NCBI GenBank assembly: GCA_041650715.1
Contig: JBAZKQ010000002.1
Span: 9,568 to 73,567 of the forward strand
DNA: 64,000 bases
Source: Patescibacteria group bacterium
Lineage (GTDB): Bacteria; Patescibacteriota; Patescibacteriia; Patescibacteriales; UBA12465
Direction of reading: 5' to 3'
The first letter of the stretch is position 1, and each line of letters begins with the position of its first letter. The notes below the pieces were generated by a model. It had not been told where the DNA came from. It saw nothing but the letters and a program-made list of their open reading frames with translations, and made no database searches. Positions 7,857 to 63,818 of this stretch are shown piece after piece. The translations under genes and the position numbers were made by a program.

Positions 7857-8237
7857 TTAGCGGCTCTTTTTAGAACTGATTAAAAATAATTCTAAGATTG
7901 CAAAAATAATAACCAGCAATAATAAATTAATCCAATTAAACAGGTGCTGTGATTTTAAAATAAGAGATAAAACAATAAAAAGGGAAAAAAGGAAAGATTG
8001 GCGGAAGGCGACCTTAACCGAATTAAAAGCCAGTTCTTTCTTGAGGGCGACAAAACGAATTATGAACCCGATTAAGGCGGCCAGACCGCTTAAGGATAAA
8101 AATAGCGCCAAATAAAAAAGGATGTAGCCCAGCCAATTAGTGGCTGTCGGGTCAATTAAGCTGGCGACAAAAATAAGAATACCCCAGCACACGGCCGTAA
8201 GAGTCGACATCACGAATAAATAATTTTTTAGGGTCAT
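7857..8237 (-). CDS. Hypothetical multi-pass membrane protein
   Basis: About four hydrophobic segments. Overlaps the valS stop by 4 nt, which suggests an operon. Confidence 0.4.
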   Translation of the reverse strand: MTLKNYLFVMSTLTAVCWGILIFVASLIDPTATNWLGYILFYLALFLSLSGLAALIGFIIRFVALKKELAFNSVKVAFRQSFLFSLFIVLSLILKSQHLFNWINLLLLVIIFAILELFLISSKKSR

Positions 8238-56097: not shown

Positions 56098-56483
56098 GGG
56101 GATGCCAGGCATCGACAGTCGGAGCTTTTTCTAAATATTCAAAACGCGCCTAGCTAATCGCGTTAAACTGGCTAAAAAAATACAAATGCCAAAACGGCAA
56201 GAGCATTCACTTGGTTAACTCCGAGCTATGCTCCAGTTATGGCCTAATTAATAAGGCTATAACCATCGGCGGATCGTGAGTCTTCATAACGGTCAACCGG
56301 TGTCATTCAATTGAAGATAGATATTATTTGCGCCTGACGAGTAATATCGAATCAAAATCGGGATCGCTTCAATCGCTTTTGTGTGGTTTTTGATGATTGA
56401 AGTTAAAAAAACGAAATCACTCTATTTTTGTAAATGTATTTAGGAAAACCGATTGGACATGGGTTCAAATCCCATCATCTCCA
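56098..56483 (+). ncRNA. ssrA: tmRNA (SsrA)
   Basis: - The 5' ggggatg pairs with the 3' catctcc, including the G3-U wobble (Ala identity).
- T-arm atggg-ttcaaat-cccat.
- Candidate tag reading frame GCC at 56188 to TAA at 56245-56247, encoding AKTARAFTWLTPSYAPVMA.
- Lies directly after smpB. Confidence 0.85.
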
Positions 56484-56487
56484 CATT

Positions 56488-56571
56488 GCCGCGGTGGCGG
56501 AACTGGTAGACGCGCTGGACTTAAAATCCAGTTGTAGCGATACAGTGCGGGTTCGATTCCCGCCCGCGGCA
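56488..56571 (+). tRNA. tRNA-Leu with anticodon UAA (class II, long variable arm)
   Basis: Acceptor gccgcgg/ccgcggc, anticodon stem ctgga/tccag, loop cttaaaa, variable arm tgta-gcga-taca, T-arm gcggg-ttcgatt-cccgc. Begins 4 nt after the tmRNA. Confidence 0.9.
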
Positions 56572-56594
56572 CTAGTAAGCAAGTTAAACGATAC

Positions 56595-56666
56595 GCGGGT
56601 ATCGTATAGTGGTTATTATGCGACCTTGCCAAGGTCGAGAGACGGGTTCGATTCCCGTTACCCGCT
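56595..56666 (+). tRNA. tRNA-Gly with anticodon GCC
   Basis: Acceptor gcgggta/tacccgc, anticodon stem cgacc/ggtcg, loop ttgccaa, T-arm acggg-ttcgatt-cccgt. Confidence 0.85.
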
Positions 56667-56673
56667 CAATAAC

Positions 56674-56702
56674 AAAAAAGACTCCTCTTGGAGTCTTTTT
56701 TG
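56674..56702 (+). terminator. Intrinsic terminator after the tmRNA/tRNA-Leu/tRNA-Gly cluster
   Basis: agactcc (56679-56685) pairs with ggagtct (56690-56696), followed by a T-run. Confidence 0.8.
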
Positions 56703-56711
56703 TTATTGATA

Positions 56712-56888
56712 GGAAGAAGAACGGGAATCGAACAGGTTGGAAGCGAGATATGAGCCGAGACGGAAGGCGAGGCGAGTAATCGAGCGTCGGACGAATATCT
56801 GGGGGATATTCGGATGCCAACCCTGGACAAGTGAGCGAGGCGCAATTCTGGCGCCGAGTGAGCGCGAGGATGGGGATTAGTAAGCCAG
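56712..56888. other. G+C-rich structured non-coding element B, tRNA-adjacent
   Basis: Visibly G+C-rich in an A+T-rich context.
- 56720-56733 (aacgggaatcgaac) is the exact reverse complement of the tRNA-Gly T-arm at 56646-56659.
- Hairpins: cgaatatc-tgggg-gatattcg (about 56801-56821), ggcgc-aattctg-gcgcc (about 56839-56855), and caggttgg..ccaaccctg.
- Shares AGTGAGCGC and AGCGAGG with element A. Confidence 0.5.
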
Positions 56889-57097
56889 ATAAATAGAGCT
56901 TGAAAGTACTTTTTATTATTTAAAGCGTGAATTACAGTAGCAAAGCCGGCTTGATTCATACGTTTTATATTTACCTAAATTTGTATAATTACGTTTCATA
57001 AATCATGCTTGGCATTGCATTAAGATTGAATTTAATTTTGTAAAATATTATATAGTTATTGTCAAGATTTATTTAAAGGAAGCTCTGGTGTAAACTT

Positions 57098-57712
57098 ATG
57101 ATAATAATTAAAATACTAAATATGCCGCCCGAAAATTTCTGTAATTTTTTAAATATTCCTTTTTATTTGAAATATGAATTTTGGTTGACCATCGCTAGTA
57201 TTGCATTTGCTGGATTTGCGTTATTCGAAACAATGAAATTAAGAAAGGAATCGCAAAGGCAAAATATACTCGCCAAACAGCCATATCTATCCCTTAAACT
57301 AAAAAAAGATGAAGAAAATAAAAGCTCTAAGCAGATACTTGTAAATAATTCTCTGAACCCTGCCTTTAATATATTTGTTCTTTTTGGAAGTGCTGATAAA
57401 TATTTAATCACAAAAGAAGGTGGCGTTATTAGCTCGCTGGGCCCAAACGAAAGAAGGCAGATTAATGATGATGAGTTAACCACGATAAATAGATCTGCTA
57501 TTTTGGAAAGAATTAAATTTTTGAATAAACTTATAAATAAGTTTGAAACTAAAAGCACAAGTTTTCACGCTATTTTCTATGAAGATATATTCGGAAATAA
57601 AATGTATTCAGTTGGCTTGCCTTCATTGATCATGGAAAATGGGTATAATGGTTTTTTTAATGTAGGGTATGTTGAGGGTGCGAGGACAAAAAATAGAACT
57701 GTTATCATATAA
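57098..57712 (+). CDS. Hypothetical membrane-anchored protein
   Basis: One TM helix (WLTIASIAFAGFALF) followed by a roughly 150-aa soluble domain of unknown family. Very A+T-rich. The start is uncertain; the Met at 57122 is possible. Confidence 0.4.
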   Translation: MIIIKILNMPPENFCNFLNIPFYLKYEFWLTIASIAFAGFALFETMKLRKESQRQNILAKQPYLSLKLKKDEENKSSKQILVNNSLNPAFNIFVLFGSADKYLITKEGGVISSLGPNERRQINDDELTTINRSAILERIKFLNKLINKFETKSTSFHAIFYEDIFGNKMYSVGLPSLIMENGYNGFFNVGYVEGARTKNRTVII

Positions 57713-57725
57713 GTATGCTAAATAA

Positions 57726-58403
57726 ATGAGTGTTGCACTAAAGTTTAAAGAATTTCAAAAAGAATCAAAAAGGGCCCAATATGGGATAGGCCATGAGTTT
57801 GGTCTGATTTTATCATTAATTGATTTTGGGAATGTTGATTATTGGTATGAATTTGATAATTTTAATCGAGATGGAAAAGCCTTAAAGGATAACGAAAAGT
57901 TAAATGTTGACCTAGAATATTTAAAACAATTCTGTGATTTATTTTCTTATAATTCAAAATTTTATTTTGGTTTGGATTCTAAGAAAAAAGAATCAATACA
58001 TTTAATAGCTTCAGCTAGAAATTTTTTTGGTAAAACGAATGTTGTAACAAAAGAAATACAATATATACAACATTATTTAAATGATTTAGAAAAAAAGGAG
58101 AATACTCGCTCGGTAACTTACGATATTCATGGACAATATATAAAAATACCAAAGTGCAATTTTGATGTAGAAATCTGCATTGATGCCATTAGATTGGCTG
58201 ATAAATATGACACCCTATGTTTATTTTCCGGAGACGCTGACTTTACGGCGTTGTTAAGATTTTTAAAATATCAAAAGAAGAAAATAATTTTGATTAAAGG
58301 CGGGCGCGTGCTTCATAGTTTAGTAAAAGCCTCCGATTTAGTCATTAATGCTCAGGAAATAAAAAATGAATTAGTCTTTATAAAGCAAAAATCCCGCCGA
58401 TAG
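57726..58403 (+). CDS. NYN/LabA-like (PIN-related) ribonuclease-domain protein
   Basis: NYN motif order: LIDFGNVDYW, then KCNFDVEICIDAIRLA, then LFSGDADFTALLRFLKYQKKKIILI. Confidence 0.6.
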   Translation: MSVALKFKEFQKESKRAQYGIGHEFGLILSLIDFGNVDYWYEFDNFNRDGKALKDNEKLNVDLEYLKQFCDLFSYNSKFYFGLDSKKKESIHLIASARNFFGKTNVVTKEIQYIQHYLNDLEKKENTRSVTYDIHGQYIKIPKCNFDVEICIDAIRLADKYDTLCLFSGDADFTALLRFLKYQKKKIILIKGGRVLHSLVKASDLVINAQEIKNELVFIKQKSRR

Positions 58404-58568
58404 GCGAGATTTGCGGATCTCGGACCCGAATCCACGGGCAGGGCAATAAAAATTTATTGCAATTAAAATATACAATAATAAATTTGTATTGTCAAGGAAA
58501 TCATAATTTTTTTATCCGCTCAAGATATTGCCGCTTTTAGAATAACAGTCCAAAATTCTATCGGGTAA

Positions 58569-59573
58569 CTACTTATTAGTTTTAATTAACCTTTCAGTAT
58601 TTAGTTTTTTTATATAGGCATCATAGCGTCTGTATGATTTTTCTTTTGCAATTAGGCTCCTTTTTTCTTTTACATTTGTATTACTATCTTTTAATTTTTC
58701 TTTTACAAAACTTCTTTTTCTAAGCGTATTTGCGCCAGCAATGACTTTATTCCTACAAAGCTTTAGGCCTAAATGTTCTACATTTCCTGTCGTATATGAT
58801 GAAATATTTTTTTTGTCGTTTAATAAAAGCGAATGGTTTGTGTCGTAGTTTTTTAAAATACTCTCAATTTTATCATAAACCTCATTCATTAAATCCTCAC
58901 TAACGTTATATGCGCTAATTCCGATGTCATCAACATATATGGTTAATCTTGGGTTATGGCCCTTAAGCATTTTTTTAACAGCCCAGCTAACTCTTAAAAA
59001 TAAATCTAAATTACACAATGTTGCAAGCCTGGTTGATGTGGCAAACCCCCGAGCAATGGTTTTTCTTTTTGAATTACTATTTTTTTGTCCGACTGACACG
59101 CAACACAAATTAGCTATTAATTTAGAAGCTTTTTTGCTACACCCACATTTATTATTTAGAAGGATTTCAATACGTTTGCTGTCATTTTGTTCAAAAAAAC
59201 GTCTAATGTCTGCCCCAAGCTTAATTCTTTTTCGATGGCCACCAAGCAAACTAAGACTTGCCTGTATGTGATTTTTTTTCGAGACTCCGCCAAAAATAAA
59301 ATCGGGTAATATTTTATCAGTGGGGGCTAAAACTTTTTTATTAATTAAATTTAATAATTTACCGAGAGGGTTGCCATATGAGGTTCTAACGTATTTTTCA
59401 TTTTTAAAATCAGATGCTTTTATGTTGTCTCTCCAATATTTGTCATAATTAGCCAAAACGTCATTAATTAAAATTAGCGCCTCACCATGGGTAAAATTAC
59501 TTCCTGATATTCTTTTTGCTAATTCATTCTTGCTTCTGATATTTATATTGGGATAACGATTATTTTCTGGCAT
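58569..59573 (-). CDS. Stand-alone reverse transcriptase (compact, unclassified)
   Basis: - RT motif 1: LGKLLNLINKKVLAP.
- Motif 2: FGGVSKKNHIQAS...LGADIRRFFEQN.
- Motifs 3/4: ARGFATSTRLATLCNLDL.
- Motif 5: YVDD, encoded at 58926-58937 (checked by hand).
- Motifs 6/7: LLLNDKKN...VEHLGLKL.
- Lys-rich helical tail. No fused effector, maturase or endonuclease domain. Confidence 0.8.
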   Translation of the reverse strand: MPENNRYPNINIRSKNELAKRISGSNFTHGEALILINDVLANYDKYWRDNIKASDFKNEKYVRTSYGNPLGKLLNLINKKVLAPTDKILPDFIFGGVSKKNHIQASLSLLGGHRKRIKLGADIRRFFEQNDSKRIEILLNNKCGCSKKASKLIANLCCVSVGQKNSNSKRKTIARGFATSTRLATLCNLDLFLRVSWAVKKMLKGHNPRLTIYVDDIGISAYNVSEDLMNEVYDKIESILKNYDTNHSLLLNDKKNISSYTTGNVEHLGLKLCRNKVIAGANTLRKRSFVKEKLKDSNTNVKEKRSLIAKEKSYRRYDAYIKKLNTERLIKTNK

Positions 59574-59889
59574 ATTTTTTTAAATTTTTCGCTTTTTTGC
59601 TTATTAGTGATATTTGCAATTTTTCACCTAATTTTATCATTTCTTCTTCTATTTTAGTTAAGCTGATTTTACTAATATCAATATTTCCATATAAAAAAGG
59701 GGTGATCGAATTAGGATGCACCTCAAGTTTGTCAGCTAAATTCAATATAAATTTTTTAGATATTTCTTTTTGTCCAGATTCTATCATCGAAACCAATACC
59801 GTAGAAACAGAAAGAGCGTTCGCAAGCTCCTCTTGAGTCAATCCACTATTTTTTCTAATTTCTTTTAATAATTCAGGGAATGATACCAT
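59560..59889 (-). CDS. XRE-family helix-turn-helix protein
   Basis: HTH_3 pattern LKEIRKNSGLTQEELANALSVSTVLVSMIESGQKEIS. Its 3' end overlaps the RT start codon by 14 nt. Confidence 0.8.
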   Translation of the reverse strand: MVSFPELLKEIRKNSGLTQEELANALSVSTVLVSMIESGQKEISKKFILNLADKLEVHPNSITPFLYGNIDISKISLTKIEEEMIKLGEKLQISLISKKAKNLKKYARK

Positions 59890-59896
59890 AAAGAGA

Positions 59897-60052
59897 TTAC
59901 AGGGCGACTATTTTATGAGGTCTACGATGATATGGGCAATCTGCAAAAGTATTTGCATTATTACACATAATCTTCGCGTGTTTTTCATAAATAGCCGCCC
60001 CTAAAATTGAAGGGCACAAATTAAAACTTTTAACTTTGGCTTTCATAATCAT
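59897..60052 (-). CDS. Possible 51-aa Cys/His-containing small ORF, first gene of the RT operon (not in the ORF track)
   Basis: Hand translation gives MIMKAKVKSFNLCPSILGAAIYEKHAKIMCNNANTFADCPYHRRPHKIVAL. The stop lies 7 nt upstream of the HTH ATG. No convincing Shine-Dalgarno sequence. Confidence 0.3.
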   Translation of the reverse strand: MIMKAKVKSFNLCPSILGAAIYEKHAKIMCNNANTFADCPYHRRPHKIVAL

Positions 60053-60454
60053 ATGGGTTTAGTTATTATTTGAATAATAAGGGACCTTTATAAAAATGAT
60101 TACCTAATTTTCTTGTGACCATCATCACCGTGGTACCCTCCAACAATAAACTTTGATGATCAAAAGATTATCAAGCAATCACTGTCAGAACATGAATGTT
60201 AGCTGTATATTATTTATAAATAATTAATATATGCGCTAAAAGTTCTGCGCTAGAGCAAATGTAGCATTAGTCTTATTAGCGCAAAGCATTGAGCATGGCG
60301 TTATAATAAGATGACACATTAATTTACTCTCCCGGAAAAAATCTTTCCTTTTAAGATAGCAAAGAGAAAGAGACAGATATCAAGATGGATATCTAAAATA
60401 ACGGTTAAGCGTAGTCACAAAATTTTAATTTGTTAATATACTATCCTAGTTAAT

Positions 60455-60483
60455 ATATTATACTTTTTGTATAAGTATGTCAA
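60455..60483 (-). promoter_or_regulatory. Near-consensus promoter reading toward the RT operon
   Basis: On the minus strand, TTGACA (60483-60478) is followed either by a 17-nt spacer and TAATAT (60460-60455), or by a 15-nt spacer and TATAAT (60462-60457). Confidence 0.5.
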
Positions 60484-60637
60484 GGGTGTCCATGGGGTGT
60501 GCTCCTGGCAAGCACACCAAACTCCCCAATATTAAAGATTGAGTTAAATTACCCCCTTCCTATATTGCCTCCCCACAAAAAATTGCGCCGCCATTGTGAT
60601 CGAAAAGTGATAAATTTCTTTTTTTGTGATAATAGTC

Positions 60638-60667
60638 AAAAACTACCCTAACCATAAGGTAGTTTTT
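60638..60667. terminator. Symmetric hairpin with flanking A-run and T-run (bidirectional terminator-like)
   Basis: aaaaactacc (60638-60647) pairs with ggtagttttt (60658-60667). The loop is ctaaccataa. Confidence 0.55.
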
Positions 60668-60780
60668 TGTACCCCCAAAACCCTATTTCCTTGAATCTTA
60701 TTAATAGTTGACTAAAATAGAGCTATTATGATATATTTTTTTGTCATACAAATAATGTCGAACCTTTAAAATTTATAGCC

Positions 60781-61194
60781 ATGAAAAGCAAAACTGTATT
60801 ACTAATTGAACCCAATCGGAGTATTCGGGAAAACCTGAAAAACTCCTTGGAGGCCATCGGCGATAAAGTGTTTATTGCCAAGGACGAAGATGAAGCATTG
60901 GGTGTTTTAAAAGGGAATGAAATAGATGTAATTATAATTGAGCCTCTTTTAAATACTGATTTTTTGAGTAATAAAAAAGAGTTCATAAGAAATGTTTTGT
61001 CTGGTGGCACTGGTGCCGTATTAATAAGCAACATCAGGACAGCTTATAGGAAAAAGTTTGATACAATATTCTACACGGTAGTTTCCGCAAGCAAACTTTT
61101 CGCTATTAGCCCCGAATTAGAAGATGTTATTTACATTCGCAAGCCGCAGTCCACTGAATTCATAATTCTGGTAGTCCATAGTGAGGGAGGGTAG
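60781..61194 (+). CDS. Stand-alone receiver-like (pseudo-REC) domain protein
   Basis: CheY-like layout: VLLIEPN replaces the acidic DD pocket. DVIIIEPLL puts Glu where the phospho-acceptor Asp normally sits. The conserved Lys-Pro is present (IRKP). Upstream promoter TTGACT-N18-TATATT with an extended TG. Confidence 0.5.
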   Translation: MKSKTVLLIEPNRSIRENLKNSLEAIGDKVFIAKDEDEALGVLKGNEIDVIIIEPLLNTDFLSNKKEFIRNVLSGGTGAVLISNIRTAYRKKFDTIFYTVVSASKLFAISPELEDVIYIRKPQSTEFIILVVHSEGG

Positions 61195-61266
61195 TCAATC
61201 GAATCAAAGAAACAAATAGGAAACCAAAATGACAGGATTCGTTCAAACAACCATAAAAACTTAACC

Positions 61267-61776
61267 ATGAAAGAGCCAGTTAATTCACCAAAACATTTCC
61301 ACGAATCAATTGTGGGCGTAATCGAAAAATGCAAGGACACGGACGCGCCATTATTGATCGACCTGATTACCGGTACAAAAATTGTAAATAATTACGATGC
61401 CATCGTTTGGGCCTTGTCAAAAAAGGCTGCGGTATTTGGAAAAGCTTACATAGACCTGGTTAATAGTGTCATTCTGCAAAAAACAAATGATTATCATCTA
61501 TTTATGAATGACGCCGATAACCTCGAACAAGCATTAGAATTTGGCTTTGAATTTCTCCCCCTTGGATCGGAATATTTAGGACCAAGAAGGAAAATCCGAT
61601 TAATGCGAAATTGTCTGGTTACGGGTTCTCCAATGGTGGCTGAAATTGCAGTAATTGATGCTGAAGCGAATGATCGGCGTATAGTGCTTACTGCCGCCTG
61701 GGGAAAAGATGATAAAATTTATCGCTTCCAAAAAAATTGGCCGGGCGATATCAAAGACTGGTCTGATAAGTGGTAG
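61267..61776 (+). CDS. Hypothetical protein (169 aa), co-oriented with the REC-like gene
   Basis: No recognisable family. Followed by terminator ggggaac..gttcctc plus T-run at about 61812-61840. Confidence 0.45.
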   Translation: MKEPVNSPKHFHESIVGVIEKCKDTDAPLLIDLITGTKIVNNYDAIVWALSKKAAVFGKAYIDLVNSVILQKTNDYHLFMNDADNLEQALEFGFEFLPLGSEYLGPRRKIRLMRNCLVTGSPMVAEIAVIDAEANDRRIVLTAAWGKDDKIYRFQKNWPGDIKDWSDKW

Positions 61777-61850
61777 CAATTTGCACCAACAATAAAAAAG
61801 ATTATAAATCGAAGGGGAACTAATAAAGTTCCTCTTTTTTAATAGCTTAT

Positions 61851-61877
61851 AAAAAACGCCATTTTTGGTGGCGTTTG
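61851..61877 (-). terminator. Intrinsic terminator, copy 1 of an identical 27-nt repeat
   Basis: aaaaaacgccatttttggtggcgtttg. On the minus strand the stem is aaacgcca/tggcgttt followed by a T-run. An identical copy lies at 62296-62322. Confidence 0.8.
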
Positions 61878-61903
61878 TTGTGTGTCTAAGGAGACGACTG
61901 TTT

Positions 61904-62191
61904 TTAGGTTTCTAAATAATCAGCCAGAGCGTCTTTTGAGATTTTGCTTAAGCAAAGTCCAACTGTCTGGCCCTTGGTGGCGGAGTTGACCTCATCATGA
62001 AAGAACTCAATTCTTTTAATGTGTTCTTTGATTGGTGTTTTATAACCGTTTTCGATTTTGACGTCATCTCCTTTAGAGATGGTGCCATTAGTGACTTCAC
62101 CTACGGCCATAAGTCCGCAGGTCTCTTGCTGTACTTGGTACACGGTAACCAGAGAGCCGTCTGTAGTGACCATAATAAATTTGAGATTCAT
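61904..62191 (-). CDS. Stand-alone EF-Tu domain-II-like beta-barrel protein, paralog 1
   Basis: 95 aa. CGLMAVGEVTNGTISKGDDVKI...IKRIEFFHDEVNSATKGQTVGLCL follows the EF-Tu/IF2/SelB domain II pattern (G.v..G.v..G.i..Gd.v.i ... i.sie.....v..A..G..vgl.l). Confidence 0.55.
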   Translation of the reverse strand: MNLKFIMVTTDGSLVTVYQVQQETCGLMAVGEVTNGTISKGDDVKIENGYKTPIKEHIKRIEFFHDEVNSATKGQTVGLCLSKISKDALADYLET

Positions 62192-62232
62192 GGGACTTTC
62201 TTTTTTTTAAATATTTATAAAGTTCTAACTAC

Positions 62233-62261
62233 AAATTAACAAAAATGGTGGTACCTGGCAA
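62233..62261 (-). promoter_or_regulatory. Promoter of paralog 1
   Basis: On the minus strand, TTGCCA (62261-62256), a 17-nt spacer, then TAATTT (62238-62233). Confidence 0.5.
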
Positions 62262-62295
62262 GCGACCCGACTATTATTTTTAGAAAAGTATAAAT

Positions 62296-62322
62296 AAAAA
62301 ACGCCATTTTTGGTGGCGTTTG
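62296..62322 (-). terminator. Intrinsic terminator, copy 2 of the identical 27-nt repeat
   Basis: The same 27-mer as at 61851-61877. Confidence 0.8.
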
Positions 62323-62343
62323 CTTTCTGCACTCGCGATGAGC

Positions 62344-62640
62344 CTACTGACTTTTATTAATTAAATAATCAATCAGAGCACTTTTAGAAGTTTGGCCTAA
62401 ACAGACTCCGACAAGTTCTCCTTGGATAGCGCCTCGGACTTCCTCGTGGTTTTTTTCAATTCTTTTTAGCCCATCGTAGATTGGCATCTTGTCGGCATTC
62501 TGGATACTGATCATTTCTCCCTTACTGAGACCTCCGCTTGTGATTTTGCCCACAGCTACAAGACCGCATGGTTTTTGCATTATTTGGTCAACATCCATGA
62601 CTCCTCCGCTTCCGGAAATTAGCTTAAATTTTAGCTTCAT
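62344..62640 (-). CDS. Stand-alone EF-Tu domain-II-like beta-barrel protein, paralog 2
   Basis: 98 aa and alignable end to end with 61904-62191. Compare MKLKF/MNLKF, CGLVAVGKITSGGLSKGEMISI, RIEKNHEEVRGAIQGELVGVCL and ALIDYL/ALADYL. Confidence 0.55.
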   Translation of the reverse strand: MKLKFKLISGSGGVMDVDQIMQKPCGLVAVGKITSGGLSKGEMISIQNADKMPIYDGLKRIEKNHEEVRGAIQGELVGVCLGQTSKSALIDYLINKSQ

Positions 62641-62683
62641 CGCTCAATGTATTTTTGGTTAATATTAGGAATGAACTAAATGT

Positions 62684-62712
62684 AAATTAACAAAAAAGAT
62701 GAAATATTGCAA
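62684..62712 (-). promoter_or_regulatory. Promoter of paralog 2
   Basis: On the minus strand, TTGCAA (62712-62707), a 17-nt spacer, then TAATTT (62689-62684). The geometry and the TTTTTGTTAATTT core match the paralog 1 promoter. Confidence 0.5.
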
Positions 62713-62752
62713 GAACCAAACTTCCCCTTTTAAATTATGATATAATTAATCT

Positions 62753-63136
62753 ATGAATATCCAATTACAAAATCTCGTAAAAGAATTATTAAGCCTCCAT
62801 AAACTATTGCTTGACGGGCAGCGGGCGGAATATGAATTAAAAAATGGAGTAGTCTTAAATAATAATGATTATTTTAATTTGGTCGTTAACCATTCCGACT
62901 TTAAGTGGTTGCGCGCGCTTTCGGAAGTGATTGCTATAATTGATGAGGAATCGGAACAAGGCGAAGATAATAAAGATAAAGTCAGCGCGCTCTTAATGAA
63001 TTTAGAAAAAATGCTAAGGGCCGAAGGGTCTGAAGATGAGTTTTCCCTTAAGTTTCGCTCGGCTTTGGCCGGCAGTGATATTTTAGCAGACCGGAAAGAA
63101 TTGGTACTGACAAAAATTAAAGAATTGCTTCGTTAA
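62753..63136 (+). CDS. Hypothetical acidic helical protein (127 aa)
   Basis: No recognisable family. A terminator-like caggctcccacctg plus T-run follows. Confidence 0.4.
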   Translation: MNIQLQNLVKELLSLHKLLLDGQRAEYELKNGVVLNNNDYFNLVVNHSDFKWLRALSEVIAIIDEESEQGEDNKDKVSALLMNLEKMLRAEGSEDEFSLKFRSALAGSDILADRKELVLTKIKELLR

Positions 63137-63218: not shown

Positions 63219-63659
63219 TTAACGCCGGACGAAGATTGTTTCACCATTGTCGGTGAGCGGAGCGGAAACGGTTACTTGTCCGGAGTCATCCTTAGAAATC
63301 ATATAAGTAATCCCGTTCGTCGAACCGCCGGCCGGATCTATCGGCAGGACGCTTAAATATTTTTCGTTAGCGGTTAAAACGGAGAGATTAATTAGTCCGG
63401 CGCAGTTGCCTCCCGTTTTGCAGATTTCAGTCGAGGTGGCGGTAATAGTTCGGGGAAGCGTACCGTGATTATCAGCTGCATATTGTGAAACCGCGTCAAG
63501 AATTCGGCTGACATCGACGCGCCTTTGCATATTGTTTTTGTCGCCCAGCTTGTCGCCGGGGTTAAAAGCAAAAACCGCCACGCCCGTTAAAATAAAAAGG
63601 GCAGTTATAACCAGTAGGACCTCCAAAAGGGCAAAGCCCCGATAATTAGAATTTTTCAT
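63219..63659 (-). CDS. Type IV pilin-like protein (prepilin N-terminal methylation motif)
   Basis: Start trimmed to MKNSNYRGFALLEVLLVITALFIL at 63659. This gives the class III signal G|FxLxE followed by a hydrophobic helix. Confidence 0.75.
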   Translation of the reverse strand: MKNSNYRGFALLEVLLVITALFILTGVAVFAFNPGDKLGDKNNMQRRVDVSRILDAVSQYAADNHGTLPRTITATSTEICKTGGNCAGLINLSVLTANEKYLSVLPIDPAGGSTNGITYMISKDDSGQVTVSAPLTDNGETIFVRR

Positions 63660-63818
63660 AGGATTAAGATTAAAGTATGGGGATTGAACCCACTTAATAT
63701 TATAACACACCATATTACCTACTTATTGACTAAATTACTAAAATATGTTATATTTAAGTTAGACATTGCGTCATATATTGATTAAAATAGAGGAGACACA
63801 TATTAATCATTTGAGCCC

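Follow-up and report, generated by a model that had tools for sequence, protein, structure and literature searches.

The W1 and W2 genes and their expression signals

Towards the right-hand end of the stretch analysed here, 64,000 nucleotides of contig JBAZKQ010000002.1 from a Patescibacteria group bacterium (the whole of which is called the window), lie two small genes, W1 and W2. Both are on the minus strand, and both are predicted to encode stand-alone proteins resembling domain II of elongation factor EF-Tu. The genes and the signals assigned to them are placed as follows.

61849..61878, minus strand: intrinsic terminator of W1, a hairpin (61854–61876) and U-tract, identical at 30 of 30 positions to the terminator of W2
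61904..62191, minus strand: W1, predicted 95-residue stand-alone EF-Tu domain-II-like protein, the divergent paralogue
62233..62262, minus strand: promoter-like site of W1, with –35 TTGCCA (62261–62256), a 17-nucleotide spacer and TGT-TAATTT, the –10 at 62238–62233
62294..62323, minus strand: intrinsic terminator of W2, in which the 30-nucleotide repeat recurs
62344..62640, minus strand: W2, predicted 98-residue stand-alone EF-Tu domain-II-like protein, the orthologue of the single gene of relatives
62684..62713, minus strand: promoter-like site of W2, with –35 TTGCAA (62712–62707), a 17-nucleotide spacer and TGT-TAATTT, the –10 at 62689–62684

The pair had originally been described as open reading frames of 95 and 98 residues that align throughout, and this was borne out by BLASTP, which gave a gapless alignment with 44 of 93 residues identical (47%, E = 4e-32). 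The products differ in isoelectric point (pI), at 5.3 for W1 (acidic) and 9.0 for W2 (basic), and in the alignment of the protein family described below the signature loop IMQKP is replaced in W1 by VQQET. The NCBI annotation of W1 starts at an internal methionine (Met7), giving a protein of 89 residues named "EF-Tu/IF-2/RF-3 family GTPase"; the family alignment, with its MKLxFxL N terminus, favours the upstream ATG at 62191 (window 62174–62191) and therefore the 95-residue form.

For comparison, 11 other loci carrying a family member (hereafter mini-gene) were used, namely L001–L005, L007 and L011–L015. The closest relative, L007 (GCA_964627375.1), lies on a contig that ends inside the REC gene and covers only its downstream side.

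Identical terminators of 27 nucleotides had been noted after the two genes; the identity proved to be longer, spanning 30 nucleotides, and when extended to 36 nucleotides the repeat is 92% identical. Each copy folds into an 8-bp stem with a 7-nucleotide loop, and on the minus strand the hairpin runs into UUUUUUAU. The 23-nucleotide hairpin core occurs only twice in the 64-kb window, both times in these terminators, where none was expected from shuffled sequences, and the single terminator of L007 is one loop base off from both window copies. The hairpin was also considered as a conserved RNA motif or dispersed repeat, which was rejected on the grounds that the window holds only two copies and that orthologue terminators differ in sequence.

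The W1 and W2 promoters read as sigma-70-type sites with an extended –10 (TGT-TAATTT), as predicted from the sequence. Their patterns are CTTGCCA-N10-TTTTTGTTAATTT (62262–62233) and CTTGCAA-N10-TTTTTGTTAATTT (62713–62684), respectively, and the combined pattern CTTGC(C/A)A-N10-TTTTTGTTAATTT was matched at these two places only in the whole window, with 0.03 matches expected, in keeping with the earlier description of promoters of equal geometry with a shared core. The exact 13-mer common to both cores is likewise unique to the two sites within the window, the upstream regions could be aligned for about 30 nucleotides past the –35, and the W2 core is kept in L007. In all orthologues examined the mini-gene comes with a TTGACA-type promoter and a terminator of its own, the latter differing in sequence.

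No known RNA family was detected within the cassettes or close to them, the only matches being the tmRNA and tRNAs upstream, and the 5' leaders of W1 and W2 were unstructured on folding. Mini-gene leaders show no clear Shine-Dalgarno sequence, and short motifs recur in them between genomes: TTAACCAAAAA is found about 10–15 nucleotides ahead of the ATG in W2 (window 62641–62670), L007, L001 and L004 (about 7965–8000 in the last two), and AAGGCYAGTTCTTAA directly after the –10 in L003 and L005 (about 7940–8000).

Fold and family of the two proteins

For assignment of the fold, a combination of profile searches and structure comparison was used. The Pfam model GTP_EFTU_D2 (PF03144) matched W1 with 36.3 bits (E = 7.6e-9), above the gathering score of 30.3, and W2 with 24.2 bits (E = 4.6e-5), under that score. 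When PDB chains were searched with a profile built from 17 family sequences, domain II of eEFSec, EF1A and EF-Tu was matched with E values of 2e-7 to 1e-4; the hhalign probability for the domain II match was 94%. NCBIfam matches to elongation factors (EF-Tu, EF-1alpha and SelB) were confined to domain II, and Pbp11, the stand-alone archaeal protein compared below, was matched weakly. The model that AlphaFold2 gave for W1 (predicted local distance difference test score, pLDDT, of 92.9) consists of a beta-barrel and a short C-terminal helix (residues 86–92). When this model was compared with the PDB by Foldseek, the best 50 matches were all domain II of EF-Tu or EF1A (probability 1.00, TMq 0.68–0.74), with root-mean-square deviations of 1.5–3 Å, the lowest being 1.5 Å over 77 columns; the modelled barrel is six-stranded and superposes on the solved domains.

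No P-loop GTPase (G) domain was found in W1 or W2, whose matches span only about positions 215–300 of EF-Tu models, nor was GTPase-like sequence found in their flanks. Pfam, the family profile, AlphaFold2 and Foldseek thus agree with the original prediction of a domain II barrel lacking a GTPase domain, and W1 and W2 are, as far as sequence and model indicate, stand-alone EF-Tu/EF1A domain II barrels capped by a C-terminal helix. The NCBI label of W1 as a GTPase is misleading, because the protein has no GTPase domain.

An exhaustive HMMER search over 1.84 billion (1.84e9) representative proteins returned 85 matches at E ≤ 1e-3 and 16 at E ≤ 1e-10. Fifteen of these 16 are short proteins aligned end to end, 13 of them having 94–99 residues, one 106 residues, and one 150 residues with extensions. 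The family alignment yields the signature MKLxFxL...IMQKPxGLVxVG...ISKGD...KRIExxHxEV..A..GQxIGICL..TSKExLLxYL. Among the weaker matches were other single-domain proteins as well as proteins that lack a GTPase domain and carry two or three domain-II units joined together. Source organisms are named Patescibacteria, one sequence being the complete chromosome of a Candidatus Falkowbacteria, and W1 and W2 belong to a small, uncharacterised protein family restricted to a Patescibacteria lineage. A closer relative of W1 was found in neither of the two protein databases searched. One contig with a mini-gene (CAZYNT010000015.1, locus L004) is labelled "uncultured Gammaproteobacteria"; it also carries S1 and FtsH genes homologous to those of the Patescibacteria contig L007, and it is probably mis-binned. 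A phage origin of the mini-genes was considered and rejected, as no relatives were found in IMG/VR contigs; matches to viral structures in BFVD comprised nothing but full-length giant-virus GTPases.

History of the duplication and the surrounding genes

The cassette of terminator, coding sequence and promoter is repeated head-to-tail with a period of 445–449 nucleotides, and all three parts are homologous between the two units, the promoters through the 13-nucleotide identical core and the –35. To this extent the proposal that the whole cassette was duplicated is upheld, but the event was not a recent one. W1 and W2 agree at only 7 of 20 four-fold sites, the synonymous divergence (dS) is about 2.8 (saturated), and the ratio of non-synonymous to synonymous divergence (dN/dS) is 0.17, compared with 0.28 between W2 and its L007 orthologue. 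Because synonymous sites are saturated and dN/dS is low, the sequences indicate that the duplication is old and that both copies are constrained by purifying selection. Despite this age the regulatory elements were retained or homogenised: with dS saturated, simple recent copying does not account for the 30/30 identity of the terminators, which is due instead to gene conversion, selection or a recombination boundary.

At the protein level W2 is 89% identical to the L007 product and 54–58% identical to those of L004, L012 and L013, and it is the orthologue of the single gene found elsewhere. W1 is about equally distant (30–47%) from all members, W2 included, and is a divergent orphan paralogue. 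Exactly one unit occupies the corresponding place in L007, whose sequence matches the window both to the left of the first terminator and to the right of the second, and the W1 cassette is a 445-nucleotide indel relative to L007, bounded by the 30-nucleotide repeat. Two histories fit these observations. Either an old tandem duplication had its terminators homogenised by gene conversion and W1 was lost in L007 through recombination between the repeats, or a diverged copy was inserted later at the terminator. Of 200 neighbour-joining bootstraps, only 50 placed W1 as the sister of W2/L007, and the tree therefore does not separate duplication with loss in L007 from acquisition of a distant copy.

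The W2 cassette (window 62291–62713) is 92.7% identical in nucleotides to L007 1748–2170 with a dS of 0.18, whereas the flanking genes for proteins of 169 and 127 residues (p169 and p127) and for a pilin are 78–79% identical with dS values of 0.9–1.0; for REC, dS is 0.34. This mosaic divergence suggests either recent recombination of the segment or an unusual constraint, and a more unusual possibility is that lineages exchange the terminator–gene–promoter cassette as a whole.

Further features of the window are listed below.

56098..56667, plus strand: tmRNA (56098–56484), tRNA-Leu(taa) and tRNA-Gly(gcc), downstream of tig and smpB
58569–59889, minus strand: candidate retron, a reverse transcriptase (RT) of 334 residues with an overlapping upstream helix-turn-helix (HTH) protein of 109 residues; PADLOC matches RT_VI (6.5e-19) and HTH_VI (2.6e-12)
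61267..61776, plus strand: p169, 169 residues, convergent, with its own terminator hairpin (61816–61832); common to L007 and L011; left border of the cassettes
62753..63136, plus strand: p127, 127 residues, all-helical, divergent from W2; frequent but non-obligatory neighbour of mini-genes

After tRNA-Gly the gene order in the window is a gene for a 204-residue protein, NYN, RT and HTH, REC, p169, W1, W2 and p127, so that about 5 kb of variable genes separate the tmRNA/tRNA cluster from the pair. Within 56098–61200, about 4.5 kb of genes following the tmRNA and tRNAs (those for the 204-residue protein, NYN, RT and HTH) are absent from related loci; the REC, p169, p127 and pilin genes are common to the window and L007. 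On the simplest reading, variable genes accumulate in this tRNA-adjacent spot, a classical tRNA/tmRNA integration site, and the mini-gene is a conserved chromosomal gene on its far side and not island cargo. Direct repeats resembling att sites were sought as island borders, and none was convincing. The RT and HTH genes are a candidate type VI retron, and the gene-free stretch of about 890 nucleotides upstream of them (59890–60780), in which no Rfam match was found, could hold its msr/msd RNA. In L012 (1101–1821) a gene for a 220-residue protein with a transposase-like HTH domain separates the two tRNA genes (tRNA-Gly and tRNA-Leu) that belong to the ssrA cluster, a further sign that this cluster is an insertion hot spot.

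Within the DNA examined, each of the 11 other loci contains one mini-gene, which is monocistronic in all 11. The cluster that recurs in the neighbourhood of the mini-gene is tig-smpB-ssrA-tRNA-Leu(taa)-tRNA-Gly(gcc); the mini-gene is convergent to it, and this is its ancestral position. A distance of 0.1–7 kb from smpB-ssrA-tRNA-Leu-tRNA-Gly was found in the window, L001/L002, L005, L012, L013 and L015. The gap to tRNA-Gly is 103 nucleotides in L015, a single gene intervenes in L012 (NUDIX) and in L013 (bPH), the mini-gene of L005 is about 6 kb from the cluster, and that of L001/L002 lies beyond tig; in L011 the gene about 2.7 kb from tRNA-Gly encodes a more distant relative of 138 residues. 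In L003, L004 and L014 the mini-gene is unlinked to the cluster, its neighbours being NUDIX, S1, FtsH, MFS and riboflavin-kinase genes. The other neighbours of mini-genes are housekeeping genes, comprising those for H+-PPase, NusA, ribosomal protein S1, FtsH, IF3/L35/L20, NUDIX and MFS proteins. A third copy was searched for in the window at the H+-PPase/tig position, the site of the L001 gene, and none was found there.

A homologue of p127 is adjacent to and divergent from the mini-gene in L005 (45% identity) and lies nearby in L001, L007 and L011. An obligate partnership was nevertheless rejected, as either gene occurs without the other: p127 is not present within 5 kb of the mini-gene in L012–L015, and it is present without a detectable mini-gene in L008–L010. 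The p127 model has six helices (pLDDT 90), and the protein gave no Pfam, no PADLOC and no significant PDB match. In related genomes p127 is often found beside both the mini-gene and a type IV pilin-like gene (63219–63713 in the window).

Proposed function and relation to known domain II proteins

On balance, and with modest confidence, we favour the reading in which W1 and W2 are old tandem paralogues in a lineage-restricted domain II family, encoded as ordinary chromosomal genes and likely serving as translation-related binding modules. The mini-protein would serve RNA metabolism connected with translation as a small binding module, using the surface that in EF-Tu holds the 3' (A76) end of tRNA, by analogy with the archaeal protein Pbp11 (compared below), and its target would be an RNA 3' end or a translation component. 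In the hhalign alignment the near-invariant Glu62 of the family corresponds to Glu259 of Escherichia coli EF-Tu, His65 to Arg262, and Gly26 to Gly224; in EF-Tu, Glu259 stacks on A76 of the tRNA. The conserved residues Q22, K23 and P24 align with the hairpin at EF-Tu 219–224, and K59 and R60 stand beside Glu62; in EF-Tu these segments make up the pocket for the 3' end and the loop that touches the 30S subunit. After duplication, W2 would have retained the ancestral signature and W1 would have diverged, with an altered loop and acidic charge, under continued purifying selection. As the loop and charge of W1 have changed and yet the gene remains under such selection, W1 probably has a modified or partner role.

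Several observations weigh against this reading. No operon partner hints at a function, and the family is not basic, its net charge being near neutral or acidic (pI 4.5–9.6), with no counterpart of the basic N-terminal tail of Pbp11. In the hhalign alignment Thr228 of EF-Tu is matched by Val or Ile and the position of Asn273 is variable; on manual extension of the alignment, Arg288 falls within the region swapped for the C-terminal helix. On the available DNA, linkage to the tmRNA/tRNA cluster is not seen in L003, L004, L014 or L007, and the synteny with smpB-ssrA could be mere shared ancestry of related genomes.

A more specific role in trans-translation, in which the barrel joins SmpB on tmRNA and binds its alanylated acceptor end (or the acceptor end of tRNAs), would accord with the linkage of the mini-gene to smpB-ssrA-tRNA-Leu-tRNA-Gly in most loci and with the conserved Glu259 equivalent; EF-Tu itself reportedly binds the acceptor arm of Ala-tmRNA together with SmpB. 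The linked loci, however, belong to related genomes with general synteny (H+-PPase-tig-smpB), so that the linkage may be inherited and not selected. Moreover, the mini-gene is convergent to the cluster and not co-transcribed with it, the three loci L003, L004 and L014 show no linkage at all, and the protein is not basic; such an accessory role is considered unlikely. The family might also be a bacterial counterpart of Pbp11, a free EF-Tu domain II that in Patescibacteria with their reduced genomes captures the aminoacylated CCA end of tmRNA or tRNAs, with W1 tuning or antagonising this activity. Capture of this kind would explain the persistent position beside the smpB-ssrA-tRNA genes, and we regard it as a doubtful proposition.

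Similarly improbable is a protein–protein module in which acidic W1 pairs with basic W2; such a heterodimer would correspond to the fused two-barrel proteins, and its work would not concern tRNA ends. GTPase-less fused proteins do exist, as in P0020 (208 residues), P0022 (179 residues) and P0026 (190 residues), each with two GTP_EFTU_D2 stretches, and both the opposite charges of the two products and the purifying selection on both copies would suit such an arrangement. All other genomes sampled, on the other hand, have a single copy within the DNA examined, so that pairing is not the general mode of the family.

The original prediction had placed W1 and W2 in a defence island, where an isolated domain II might serve as decoy, sensor or adaptor together with RT/HTH, NYN and REC. 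The pair does lie about 2.3 kb from the RT and HTH genes with their PADLOC matches and near the gene for the NYN protein, and EF-Tu is a target in some defence systems such as Lit/Gol. When co-occurrence was surveyed, however, NYN, RT and HTH genes were absent from all 11 other loci (the L007 contig ending inside REC), and the mini-genes proved to be lineage-wide genes unlinked to the island. PADLOC gave no match for W1, W2, p127 or p169, and the viral searches described above returned no IMG/VR relatives and only full-length GTPases in BFVD. W1 and W2 also appear to be transcribed separately, on the strand opposite to REC and p169 and with their own predicted promoters and terminators, and the island fills the usual variable spot after the tmRNA and tRNAs, with the mini-gene on the far, conserved side. 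Because the other loci lack the NYN, RT and HTH genes, the tig-smpB-ssrA site is conserved, and neither PADLOC matches nor phage relatives were found, membership of a defence island is unsupported. A defence role is thus very unlikely, and the link of W1 and W2 to the island is a positional coincidence. Least credible is that the genes are functionless pseudogene remnants of a decaying translational GTPase, as the NCBI name of W1 could hint, given relatives of 94–99 residues conserved end to end in many genomes, dN/dS values of 0.17–0.28, dedicated predicted promoters and terminators, and flanks without GTPase-like sequence.

Should the favoured reading be true, bacteria of the Candidate Phyla Radiation would possess a translation-factor domain that acts alone, much as Pbp11 does in archaea, and their translation and quality-control machinery, poorly known in these reduced organisms, would gain a small and probably well-expressed member. 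W1 and W2 are also an example of how conserved genes bordering a tRNA/tmRNA integration hot spot can pass for defence-island cargo.

With domain II of EF-Tu, EF-1alpha and SelB, the W1/W2 family shares the beta-barrel fold, significant profile similarity, the structural glycines and the Glu259 equivalent, but the GTPase domain and domain III are missing and the whole protein has 95–98 residues. In addition, the region of the last strand in EF-Tu domain II has become the C-terminal helix (residues 86–92), most residues of the aminoacyl pocket are not conserved, and the family has motifs of its own, IMQKPxGLV and KRIExxH. The fused two- and three-barrel proteins (e.g. P0020, P0022, P0026, P0018 and P0032) likewise contain domain II without a GTPase domain, and their two units side by side recall the W1/W2 gene pair; they differ in carrying these units in one polypeptide and are distant from W1 and W2 (E values of 1e-9 to 1e-6).

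In the literature on other stand-alone domain II proteins, Pbp11 alone was found, and it is the sole characterised stand-alone domain-II-like protein. Pbp11 (Q9UZY3/PF0907; PDB 7ANU and 1XE1; NCBIfam NF041207) occurs in Thermococcales. PMC9540759 describes it as a monomeric protein of about 11 kDa in which Glu259 of EF-Tu is conserved, which binds tRNA by means that require its N-terminal tail, and which pulls down ribosomal and tRNA-processing proteins; Glu259 is named there as the EF-Tu residue that contacts the tRNA end (PMC9540759). Pbp11 differs from the present family in its archaeal origin and in binding PAN, a proteasome activator of which these bacteria have no counterpart, and the W1/W2 family starts straight at strand 1 (MKLxFxL) with no basic N-terminal tail. 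The NF041207 model scores W1 at 18.2 and W2 at 14.9 bits, far from its equivalog cut-off of 100 bits, which was reached by none of the weaker HMMER matches tested, and the family profile matches true elongation factors better than it matches Pbp11. The kind of protein that the family represents, a domain II standing alone, is already known from Pbp11.

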